Positions 41,287 to 43,677 of a stretch of 51,759 nt of DNA are shown one piece after another; the first letter of the stretch is position 1; each line of letters opens with the position of its first letter. The notes beneath the pieces were generated by a model. The model worked only from the letters and a program-made list of their open reading frames with translations. It was not told the origin of the DNA and did no database searches. The DNA comes from a virus. Taxonomy: Duplodnaviria; Caudoviricetes. The stretch is taken from positions 1-51,759 of the IMG/VR virus record IMGVR_UViG_3300024232_000017. One strand, written 5' to 3'. The position numbers were made by a program, and so were the translations under genes.

Positions 41287-43677
41287 TTGCACTGGATCAG
41301 ATCGTTGCGAGTCGTAGTTGACGTTGAGGCGAATGGCTTAAAGCCAGATATTGTTTGGTTGATTATCTGTAAAGATATCGACACAGGCAACTATGAGATA
41401 TTTAGAAACCCTTCAACTAATGAGTTAGAAAGGGAACGGTTCAATGCGTATGCTCAGAACGTTAGGCTATGGATTGGCCATAATCTCCTTGACTATGACC
41501 GTCCAGTTCTTACAAATCTTATTGGCACCACAGGGTCCATTGATCTGGTTGACAATTGCCTTGATACTCTCATTGTTAGCAAGCTTGTTGATTATTCTCG
41601 GACACAAGGCCACTCCGTAGAGGCTTACGGAGCAGAATTTGGGTACGAAAAAGGAACTTTCTACAAGTTTACAGACAAAGAATTACATAACTCTGACAGT
41701 CTTCTGTTTCGAAAACTAGAAGAATATTGTAAGAGAGACGTAGATATTACACATAAGATATACCTTAAGTACCTAAGGATTATTAAGGATACACAATGGG
41801 GACCTAGTATATCCTTGGAACATAAGTTCCAAGTGTTAGTTAATACACTAGAGACTAATGGATTTAGCTTTAATACTAACAATGCTACTAAGCTATTAAC
41901 TAAGGTAACAGAGGAACTAAGTACCTTAGATACTCTTATACTTAAGGAATTCCCTAGTAAGCTTAAGCTTATACGCGAGATACACCCGCGGTACACTAAG
42001 CACGGTACCTTGAGTAAATCTGACTTTAGGTTCGTGAAAGACGGGGATCTCAGTGAATATAATGGCGGGCCATTCTCGCGGTGTGAGTGGGTAGAGTTTA
42101 ATCCTTCTTCTCATACTCAATTAGTTAAATTATTAAACAGTGCTGGTTGGTCTCCGACAGACAAAACTCAGACCCACATAGACACTGAAAGAGACCTCAA
42201 TCGTCTTAGGTATAGTTCTAGAGGCCAATCCGTAGTTGACGTAGCCGCAGAACGAGCTATACTGGTAAATAGGCTGGAAGAACTAAGAACAACAGGTTGG
42301 AAAGTTTCAGAGCATAATTTAGAAACGTTGCCAAATCCTGATACTTTTGAAGATTGGTTAAAGCATTGTCGCATAAAACTATTGAAGGGCGGAGAGCGTA
42401 TCAGAGAGCTTATTACGAAAAAAACGCTGAAAGAAAGCGACAGAGCTCCCGCGAACGTTACAATAAAGATCCAAGATCTTTTAAAGACAAGCAACTCCGT
42501 AGAAATTACGGACTGTCTATTAGTGAATTTGAGCGAATGTGTCTCCAACAAAACGAGTCTTGCAAAATTTGTGGAGAGCGAAAAACTCTTGTGGTTGATC
42601 ACTGTCACACCACAGGAAATATACGCGGACTGCTCTGCAAGCTTTGTAACGGATACTTGGGTTGGTTTGAGAGACACCGAGACGCTGCAACGGCGTATCT
42701 CGATGCTTCGCGCTGCCAGATCCCTGGCAAAACGTATCCTCCTAGAGTCCCGACGCCGCACTCTCACTGAGTGGCTCTCCCTCGTCTCGCCGAATGACCG
42801 TATCCACGGTCAGTTCTACGGGATTGGTGCCTGGACCCATAGGATGGCGCACCAGAAGCCCAACACAGCAAACATTCCCTCTGAATTCAAAGAGGACGGT
42901 TCTCCTAAGCTGTTAGGGAAAGAGATGCGCCAACTCTGGCGAGCACCGAGAAATCGGTTGCTCGTCGGAGTAGATGCCGAAGGTATCCAACTTCGTATCT
43001 TTGCTCATTACATAGATGACGCGGAGTTTACCGATGCTCTTGTCAGAGGCGATAAGAAGAGAAAGACCGATCCGCATTCTCTCAACCAGAGAATTCTTGG
43101 TGATGTCTGTAAGGGCAGACAAGCCGCGAAGCGCTTTATATATGCCCTCTTGTTGGGTGCGGGACTTCCGAAGCTGGCTGCTATTCTTGGCTGCTCAGAG
43201 ACCCAAGCGAGAGAAGCTCTTGATAATCTTCTCAAACGATATGGTGGGTTTGCCAAGATCAAACAAGAGGCGATACCGCACGATGCAAGCCGAGGCTACT
43301 TCGTTGGGTTGGACGGTAGGAAGGTTCTCATACCTGGAGACACAGTCTCATCGCGCAAACATCTTTGCATGTCTGGCTATTTACAAAATGGAGAAGCAAT
43401 CATCATGAAGTCTGCTGCTGTTAAGTGGCATGCAGATAAAGAAATGTTAGAAATATCTAAGGAATATCCTTGGTTTTTCGTTGACATGGTGCATGATGAA
43501 TGGCAGACTGAAGTTGTAAATAACATGAAGATTGCTTTGAAGATTGCAGAAATCCAAGCTAATTCATTAAAGCTAGTAGGCGAAGAACTTGGTCTGAAAT
43601 GTCCCCTAGCTGGTAGTTTCTATAATGATGACCATGAAGATTATACTATCGGTACTAATTGGTACCAAACACATTGA
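41287..43677 (+). CDS. Family A DNA polymerase with 3'-5' exonuclease and a ~126 aa in-frame insertion
   Basis: Exo DVE, GHNLLDYD, YCKRDV; motif A DAEGIQLR, motif B AKRFIYA, motif C VHDE; start may be TTG 41305. Confidence 0.95.
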   Translation: MHWIRSLRVVVDVEANGLKPDIVWLIICKDIDTGNYEIFRNPSTNELERERFNAYAQNVRLWIGHNLLDYDRPVLTNLIGTTGSIDLVDNCLDTLIVSKLVDYSRTQGHSVEAYGAEFGYEKGTFYKFTDKELHNSDSLLFRKLEEYCKRDVDITHKIYLKYLRIIKDTQWGPSISLEHKFQVLVNTLETNGFSFNTNNATKLLTKVTEELSTLDTLILKEFPSKLKLIREIHPRYTKHGTLSKSDFRFVKDGDLSEYNGGPFSRCEWVEFNPSSHTQLVKLLNSAGWSPTDKTQTHIDTERDLNRLRYSSRGQSVVDVAAERAILVNRLEELRTTGWKVSEHNLETLPNPDTFEDWLKHCRIKLLKGGERIRELITKKTLKESDRAPANVTIKIQDLLKTSNSVEITDCLLVNLSECVSNKTSLAKFVESEKLLWLITVTPQEIYADCSASFVTDTWVGLRDTETLQRRISMLRAARSLAKRILLESRRRTLTEWLSLVSPNDRIHGQFYGIGAWTHRMAHQKPNTANIPSEFKEDGSPKLLGKEMRQLWRAPRNRLLVGVDAEGIQLRIFAHYIDDAEFTDALVRGDKKRKTDPHSLNQRILGDVCKGRQAAKRFIYALLLGAGLPKLAAILGCSETQAREALDNLLKRYGGFAKIKQEAIPHDASRGYFVGLDGRKVLIPGDTVSSRKHLCMSGYLQNGEAIIMKSAAVKWHADKEMLEISKEYPWFFVDMVHDEWQTEVVNNMKIALKIAEIQANSLKLVGEELGLKCPLAGSFYNDDHEDYTIGTNWYQTH
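42354..42770 (+). CDS. Endonuclease VII-family (HNH-type) homing endonuclease nested in an alternative frame of the polymerase gene
   Basis: LRRNYGLS..EF..M...Q...CKICG...LVVDHCHTTGNIRGLLCKLCNGYLG...AYL. Confidence 0.85.
   Translation: MVKALSHKTIEGRRAYQRAYYEKNAERKRQSSRERYNKDPRSFKDKQLRRNYGLSISEFERMCLQQNESCKICGERKTLVVDHCHTTGNIRGLLCKLCNGYLGWFERHRDAATAYLDASRCQIPGKTYPPRVPTPHSH

Follow-up and report, generated by a model that had tools for sequence, protein, structure and literature searches.

A probable unspliced Endonuclease VII-type homing endonuclease gene within the open reading frame of a phage family-A DNA polymerase

Introduction

Homing endonuclease genes are usually thought to persist in essential genes only by way of a self-splicing intron, an intein or the splitting of the gene. 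What, then, is to be made of an endonuclease open reading frame (ORF) that lies inside a DNA polymerase gene, out of register with it, in a stretch where the polymerase frame stays open as well? The question is raised by a phage genome of 51,759 bases that originates from soil metagenomes (IMG/VR record IMGVR_UViG_3300024232_000017; the whole stretch is called the window here), in which a complete Endonuclease VII-type ORF occupies an insert in the gene for a T7 gp5-like polymerase (Table 1). A preliminary description, made from the letters of the window, had proposed a splicing-free mobile element tolerated as a dual-coding insertion in the thumb region, with ribosomal bypass or a split polymerase as alternatives. 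Each of the computational checks that it called for supports a splicing-free, dual-coding mobile insertion, the lack of splicing being inferred from the frames. We consider it likely that the insert is an unspliced mobile endonuclease gene that is translated through and forms a loop of the polymerase thumb.

Results

The insert and its two reading frames

The boundaries of the insert were fixed by alignment of the window with 71 full-length IMG/VR homologues, in every one of which (71/71) the site reads 'NLxTLP-xxAPx-xAR.LAKRIL' and holds no insert. The roughly 126 extra codons that had been noticed between NLETLP and AARSLAKR are thereby confirmed, and since about five native codons are replaced at the site the net gain is about 122 codons. 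Over the whole insert the polymerase frame can be read from the sequence without a stop, as had been claimed, and the third frame contains 14 stops. The endonuclease ORF, in the frame that the preliminary description called -1 and that is the polymerase frame +2, begins 20 bases into the insert, and just these 20 insert bases lie outside it. At its other end it extends 59 bases past the insert, where its TGA stop is formed within the conserved polymerase codons ACT-GAG. The insert is essentially a bare endonuclease gene. The endonuclease tail that is read from the polymerase helix (residues 121-138) is predicted to be disordered, and because its predicted local distance difference test (pLDDT) score in the endonuclease model is only 55-59, this tail is probably an incidental extension.

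Table 1. Coordinates of the insert, its two frames and associated features in the window
Feature	Position	Strand	Remarks
Insert, site 1	42334-42711	+	126 polymerase-frame codons between NLETLP and AARSLAKR
Endonuclease VII-type (DHHRN/HNH-like) homing endonuclease ORF	42354-42770	+	138 aa, polymerase frame +2
Endonuclease catalytic core	42561-42650	+	CKIC ... DHCH ... R ... CKLCN, residues C70-N99
Dual-coding stretch	42712-42770	+	Final 19 endonuclease codons and TGA, read from conserved polymerase helix AARSLAKRILLESRRRTLTE
Two TGA stops, endonuclease frame	42339-42341, 42348-42350	+	Just 5' of TTG; read from sequence
Family-A (T7 gp5-like) DNA polymerase gene	41305-43677	+	Single uninterrupted ORF; sole PolA match in record
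Site 2, empty in window	42786-42787	+	Junction after TEWLSLV; filled in L001 and L002
Sigma-70-like promoter match	42236-42263	+	TTGACG-16-TATACT, 10/12, ~90 bases 5' of endonuclease start; weak lead
T7 gp4-like primase/helicase	36503-38074		Same phage record, near polymerase

The assignment of the ORF to the Endonuclease VII type is well supported by profiles, with a match to Pfam Endonuclease_7 (PF02945) at E 2e-16 (60.1 bits against a cut-off of 23.6) and to PHROG endonuclease VII families at E 1e-24. In the excerpts of PMC6083498 used here, the Endonuclease VII motif is defined by a central DHxH, an N-terminal CX2-4C, a C-terminal CX2C, an Arg after the DHxH and an Asn after the CX2C. Residues C70, C73, D82, H83, H85, R91, C95, C98 and N99 of the window ORF are invariant in 16/16 aligned embedded and free-standing relatives. 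The AlphaFold model of the endonuclease has a mean pLDDT of 87.6, and its best Foldseek matches are T4 endonuclease VII (2qnf_A, 1en7_A), with Hpy99I also retrieved. The T4 matches have a probability of 1.00 over 71-72 columns; their E of only ~0.01 and TM of 0.36 are modest because just the core aligns. A phmmer search of the ORF against PDB sequences found T4 endonuclease VII at only E 0.32, and it is the profile and fold evidence that carries the likeness.

Where would translation of this ORF begin? The candidate starts are a TTG at 42354 and a second TTG at 42366, the first of which aligns with the TTG of another copy of the insert, L108, where AAGGTGGAAGA stands just upstream. The two TGA stops 5' of the TTG bar any frameshift still further upstream from leading into this frame, and a shift from the polymerase into the endonuclease frame was rejected as the main route of expression on account of them. 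Inside the insert, an A7 run occupies 42418-42424, at which a -1 slip of ribosomes or RNA polymerase would shift the polymerase frame into the endonuclease frame. The scan that gave the promoter match of Table 1 found 7 sites against 5.8 +/- 2.4 in shuffles, that is, no enrichment.

The host gene and the place of the insert

The polymerase ORF spans 41287-43677 (+) and counts 796 amino acids from its first TTG. This TTG at 41287 is in frame and is the upstream alternative to 41305, which is likely the true start, as homologues begin there. The suggestion of a split polymerase falls with the finding that the host is a single frame of 796 codons. The ORF matches Pfam DNA_pol_A at E 5.9e-25 (88.5 bits against a cut-off of 34.3), its AlphaFold model has a mean pLDDT of 85.9, and T7 DNA polymerase chains are the best Foldseek matches of that model (E ~1e-30, TM 0.6-0.73). 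The catalytic residues D557, R605, K609 and H730-D731-E732 (numbering from 41305) are invariant in 63/63 aligned polymerases. Judged by these comparisons, the polymerase qualifies as a family-A, T7 gp5-like enzyme. The record is rated 100% complete and contains one PolA match; the polymerase, the sole one of the phage, is presumably essential for replication.

The flanks of the insert align to residues ~360-400 of T7 gp5, which by the domain limits of the T7 enzyme belong to the thumb, C-terminal to the thioredoxin-binding insert. The location that the preliminary description had given thus holds as an alignment, and its thumb label depends on those limits. In the polymerase model a short helix lies on one side of the insert and a long helix on the other. 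The insert interior in the polymerase frame (residues 351-460 from 41305) has pLDDT values of 37-54, the flanks have values of at least 87, and a Pfam search of the insert in the polymerase frame returned no family.

Other copies and insertion sites

Is the arrangement peculiar to the window? Both frames are open in 8/8 distinct DNA copies, the window and seven others, so that the homologous inserts with two open frames that the preliminary description had called for do exist. Copies at site 1 are the window, L077 (the same as L078 and L111), L079, L108 (the same as L109), L110 and L112; those at site 2, which lies 25 codons downstream of site 1 after TEWLxLV, are L001 and L002. The endonucleases of the eight DNA copies are 35-60% identical and always lie in the polymerase frame +2, and the remaining frame contains 9-20 stops in the four embedded copies that were counted. 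L001 and L002 came from a polymerase search, and L108/L109, L110 and L112 turned up when metagenomes were scanned with the insert peptide. The endonuclease protein, a query that is independent of the polymerase frame, gave three loci inside polymerases, two of them distinct (L077/L078 and L079) and both open.

At the protein level, a profile built from six insert peptides was run on 1.84 billion representative proteins and gave 14 matches, all internal to polymerase-like proteins. At least 150 residues follow the match in 14/14 of these representatives, and 0/14 end inside the insert. One of the proteins, P0012 (849 aa, protein only), has site 1 as well as site 2 filled by homologous inserts, each of which is read through. 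In P0015 (760 aa, protein only) the homologous insert occupies a third site, which lies upstream of the polymerase FNPxSPKQ motif, and in P0016, a divergent polymerase, it lies near site 2. A word-based protein search with the insert returned only the window's own protein and P0002, and a scan of viral contigs with the site-2 insert of L001 returned only L001's own contig.

Two inserts are bracketed by direct repeats of upstream host codons: that of L079 (2930-3346) by ATLP (10/12 bases) and that of P0008 by N(E)xNLSTLP. These repeats look as though either the target had been duplicated or the element had brought along a copy of its 5' flank. A similar echo of the flank is reported in the excerpts of the ShiLan paper considered here (PMC11855218).

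Other irregularities of related polymerases were seen as well. The polymerase of Roseobacter phage CRP-5 (MK613347; L107, related, Cobavirinae) is annotated at 1507-3403 as two ORFs that overlap by 35 bases across an A-rich stretch; the gene could be truly split, or a frameshift could be programmed there. The break lies ~20 codons upstream of site 1, and because of this the polymerase region around site 1 seems to tolerate interruption. P0009 and P0014, both insert-bearing and known as protein only, break off directly behind the motif-B residues AKTF, where other phage polymerases have group I introns; one more intervening element, a frameshift or the end of a contig may lie behind this. The insert-free polymerase of L019 (3001-5055) has a separate insertion of ~30 residues close to the C terminus, preceded by the KW...K region and followed by the VHDEWQTE motif.

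Chance or selection in the open frame

Could the open polymerase frame be a matter of chance? The preliminary description had put the chance of such a run at about 0.2 percent; the open frame itself stands, whereas this figure was rough and too optimistic for one copy. When the endonuclease protein of the window was held fixed and its codons were redrawn from phage usage, the polymerase frame was open in 3.9% of 20,000 draws. The simulation behaves well on 10 free-standing relatives, in which the observed stops track the expected ones (for instance 8 vs 8.5, 13 vs 11.8, 2 vs 2.2). For the 8 embedded copies it expects 1.7-3.4 stops, of which 0 are observed, with per-copy probabilities of 0.011-0.144. 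Across 21 distinct free-standing relatives, hand sums give 108 stops for the 1800 codons of the matching frame, or ~0.06 per codon, and just one of the 21 (L101) is without a stop there. With the stop density of the free-standing relatives, the Poisson chance of 0 stops in 120 codons is ~7e-4. The comparative evidence, rather than any one copy, makes the open frame significant, and it is much the stronger of the two.

The older frame and a possible constraint on the younger

Which of the two frames came first? Amino-acid identity is higher in the endonuclease frame than in the polymerase frame in 21/21 pairs, and the in-frame (polymerase-frame) peptides of the copies are only 19-49% identical. 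These comparisons indicate that the endonuclease frame is the older and better conserved one and that the polymerase read-through is derived. The term 'overprinted', used in the preliminary description, is right about the dual coding and has the history reversed.

The third codon positions of the embedded endonuclease genes diverge by 0.50, compared with 0.65 in 159 free-standing pairs and 0.63 in the polymerase gene. These positions are the second positions of the polymerase frame, and the reduction persists at matched amino-acid identity. It is suggestive only, and could stem from stop avoidance, from constraint on the polymerase-frame peptide or from a raised dN/dS in the endonuclease. Such constraint would fit a peptide that had been co-opted as a functional thumb appendage, for instance for docking of a processivity factor (cf. 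the thioredoxin-binding loop of T7 gp5), with the endonuclease frame decaying; the site does fall, by alignment and the T7 domain limits, in the subdomain that also holds the thioredoxin-binding insert of T7. We regard co-option as unlikely, however, since the catalytic and zinc-binding endonuclease residues are all intact in 8/8 embedded copies, the endonuclease frame is the better conserved one in every pair compared, the peptide is predicted to be disordered, and the insert is scattered on the polymerase tree with no clade-wide fixation. The lower third-position divergence, moreover, is equally explained by stop avoidance or a raised endonuclease dN/dS. It is likewise doubtful that the in-frame peptide is already under selection of its own, a domain caught at birth rather than tolerated junk. 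If this were true, the translation of a selfish endonuclease gene in the host frame would offer replicative polymerases a way to acquire new surface modules.

Distribution and mobility

The polymerase tree has 63 rows, of which 7 bear the insert; these require 6 state changes, compared with a shuffled mean of 6.7, and 4 of the 7 have an insert-free sister. Endonuclease and polymerase similarities do not run together: L110 and the window are 54% identical in the endonuclease and 43% in the polymerase, and L001 and the window are 58% identical in the polymerase and 35% in the endonuclease. PF02945 is absent from 4/5 complete insert-free relatives and is therefore not a core gene of this phage group; on the same ground, the idea that the ORF is the phage's own junction resolvase was rejected. 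Two insert-bearing genomes carry a second, free-standing copy. The scattered distribution and the disagreement between the two similarities indicate that the insert is mobile rather than core. Scanned with the insert profile, bacterial and archaeal genomes yielded no relative, and hence no prophage copy and no clue to the host.

Splicing, excision and artefact

Is the insert removed before or after translation? A search of 41000-44000 against Rfam gave no family at E<=10, including Intron_gpI, a model that may be insensitive to ORF-bearing introns. In six other copies no group I or group II intron was found at E<=1, the sole match being a tRNA. The preliminary description had seen no room for a group I intron core, and this agrees with the missing model matches and with the 20 insert bases outside the ORF. 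The RNA of 42300-42760 folds with z = -2.05 (3/100 shuffles as good), which is too weak to argue for a ribozyme.

An unrecognised self-splicing RNA would yield a mature mRNA without the insert; it could be a ribozyme that is very compact or of a new type, or else a degenerate group I intron with a core that extends into the ORF. Group I introns with HNH genes are known in T7-like phage polymerase genes (excerpts of PMC3428280), and the slightly better folding than in shuffles points the same way. Self-splicing is nonetheless improbable in our judgement, given the lack of Rfam intron matches in the window and the six copies and the few bases that the endonuclease ORF leaves free. It would, in addition, need no open in-phase frame, yet 8/8 DNA copies and 14/14 representatives have one, and the known intron sites in such polymerases are elsewhere, as far as the excerpts of PMC3428280 go. 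Going by the conservation of the frame, splicing is probably absent.

Alternatively, the insert could be translated and then removed or cut as protein, by a non-canonical intein-like excision or by host or phage proteolysis into a two-piece polymerase. The open host frame is exactly as such a process requires, and the two-ORF polymerase of CRP-5 implies that discontinuity is tolerated in the region. Pfam, however, contains no Hint or intein family that matches at E<=0.01. The insert ends in the 8 copies (with a slash at the 3' junction) are N...LR/A, I...YE/A, T...LP/E, K...FH/S, T...RK/A, S...LE/A, R...II/S and C...IT/S. A terminal His-Asn followed by Cys, Ser or Thr is found in 0/8, and with N, I, T, K, T, S, R and C as first insert residues the junctions show no conserved nucleophile. 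The absence of intein termini claimed earlier is thus upheld. A catalytic fold in a by-product frame is also implausible, the in-frame peptide being poorly conserved (19-49%) and predicted to be unstructured, and removal at the protein level seems to us very unlikely.

Ribosomal bypass, which the preliminary description had offered as an alternative, was rejected: it needs a hop of 378 bases, the take-off site has no stop, and bypass could do without an open frame.

An assembly or frameshift error, or a polymerase pseudogene of a defective phage, could also mimic the arrangement, and the window is a metagenome assembly without an isolate. An independent soil run from another study (X2), however, yields a 593-base contig that covers 42184-42776 with no indel, which excludes the frameshift error near 42710 that had been marked for checking. 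No contig in the independent assemblies skips the insert, those of X3 and X4 covering it just in pieces. The same arrangement recurs in seven other assemblies, and the completeness of the record, its single PolA match and the invariant active-site residues are at odds with a dead gene. An artefact or a dead gene is hardly credible.

Genome context

The window record also encodes a large terminase, a portal protein and a major head protein. A blastn search of 41000-44000 against GenBank phages found no DNA similarity, and the nearest named relatives by protein are SIO1-like phages and Cobavirinae roseophages, at 33-38% identity. Near the left genome end, at approximately 1080-1450 (-), lies a free-standing classical HNH ORF of ~122-129 aa (PF01844, E 3.3e-7), which may be another homing endonuclease. 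In cyanophage contigs L081 (147-1794) and L082 (275-820), psbA is directly followed by an Endonuclease VII-type ORF. The final ~16 residues of that ORF (AAASTTPVAMTAPSIG) repeat the psbA C-terminus, which implies that this endonuclease cassette carries a copy of the 3' end of the host gene.

Discussion

How could an endonuclease gene without intron or intein maintain itself in such a place? In the explanation we favour, a free-standing Endonuclease VII motif homing endonuclease gene would have become lodged in a thumb-subdomain loop of the replicative family-A polymerase and would be removed from neither RNA nor protein. Ribosomes translating the polymerase would read the endonuclease DNA one base out of register, and the product, presumably still an active polymerase, would carry ~122 extra, largely unstructured residues at a tolerant place. 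The endonuclease itself may be made at a low level by internal initiation at the TTG in the other frame. In co-infecting relatives it would then cut those polymerase alleles that lack the insert, close to the stretch that encodes the conserved helix, and the cut allele would receive the insert by recombinational repair, which would amount to intron-less and intein-less homing.

Several points weigh against this explanation. The open frame of a single copy is only mildly improbable (p 0.01-0.14), and the per-copy probabilities are not simply to be multiplied, as the embedded copies share ancestry. Splicing, bypass and proteolytic removal are excluded solely by the argument that none of them needs an open frame. 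The 14 representatives are gene-caller products known as protein only, in which the endonuclease frame is not readable. The alignment behind the polymerase model is thin at the insert (7/63 rows filled), and the low pLDDT there may partly reflect that. Expression of the endonuclease is a prediction, and the Shine-Dalgarno match at its TTG in the window is poor. In L002 (4440-4464) the endonuclease TAA overlaps the polymerase codons ATT-AAA, with the result that the near-invariant RIHG reads RIKG. Finally, the activity of a polymerase with a 122-residue insert in its thumb is assumed.

Beside the intron or intein and the split gene, the present arrangement would represent a third kind of solution, in which the endonuclease gene sits in the other reading frame and the host protein carries a by-product peptide. 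In the excerpts of PMC11855218 this solution was first described in 2025, and only for methylases. The present case extends it to a presumably essential replicative polymerase and to a different nuclease family. It also adds comparative statistics that the earlier work lacked, namely stop avoidance measured against a validated null, several insertion sites and a doubly occupied protein. This type of element may be general, and is likely under-annotated because gene callers report only the longer host ORF. The set of inserts provides a natural map of where the thumb of a family-A polymerase accepts 100-140 foreign residues, useful for polymerase engineering, and its diverged dual-coding members are suited to the study of co-evolution in overlapping frames. 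The literature that we searched holds no report of this arrangement in a DNA polymerase, only methylase cases, and the search did not extend to supplementary tables, which may hold polymerase cases. A further methylase case is reportedly given in one genome announcement (PMC12613952).

How does the insert compare with known systems? With inteins that contain nested homing endonucleases it shares an insert that is in frame and translated with the host gene; it differs in that no Hint domain or splice-junction residues are present and the endonuclease is not in the host frame. In 'genes in pieces', such as mobE in nrdA of Aeromonas phage Aeh1, the host gene is reportedly broken into two ORFs whose products reassemble. 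There too, an endonuclease gene is said to lie, without intron or intein, inside a conserved essential phage replication gene, whereas here the host ORF is continuous. HNH genes in group I introns of T7-like phage polymerase genes (I-PfoP3I and I-TslI; Pf-WMP3, PhiI and W31), located in the fingers subdomain, provide a third comparison (excerpts of PMC3428280). I-PfoP3I and I-TslI are likewise HNH-superfamily homing endonucleases at a highly conserved stretch of a T7-like polymerase gene. In those excerpts, however, the carrier is a self-splicing IA2 intron with an in-frame UAA, whereas in the window no ribozyme was found, the frame has no stop and the site is in the thumb.

By its nuclease, the insert belongs with F-CphI and the other Endonuclease VII motif endonucleases described in 2018 (excerpts of PMC6083498). 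They share the complete CX2C ... DHxH ... R ... CX2C-N motif and the T4 endonuclease VII-like fold, and they too are small, phage-borne and sporadic. F-CphI is free-standing beside psbA and targets an intron insertion site, whereas the gene studied here lies inside its presumed target gene, in another frame.

The closest likeness of arrangement is to the ShiLan domain, an out-of-frame HNH insertion in actinophage DNA methylases (Arsenault, Gosselin and Gogarten 2025; PMC11855218; an earlier paper is PMC9957025). The excerpts of that paper cover two methylase families, call the methylase non-essential and report no splicing experiment. Compared by description, we claim this likeness of arrangement and not common descent, and homology beyond the superfamily is unlikely. 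The two have in common an insert in a conserved host gene, a disjoint distribution and a host frame free of stops. Both also possess a complete HNH-type endonuclease in a third frame with a non-ATG start a few codons into the insert, no intron or intein signature, and an in-frame peptide predicted to be a poorly structured loop. They differ in the nuclease, which here has the Endonuclease VII (PF02945) motif and 138 aa and there, in the same excerpts, is a 195-aa HNH protein with two flanking zinc fingers, and in the host gene, which here is the sole and presumably essential family-A polymerase and there the methylase. The present inserts, moreover, occur in phages of ~50 kb with T7-like replication genes, from soil and other metagenomes, and at no fewer than three insertion sites in one gene family, with one protein in which two are filled. 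In the window, finally, conserved host coding sequence supplies the last 59 bases of the endonuclease ORF, which also sets it apart from ShiLan.

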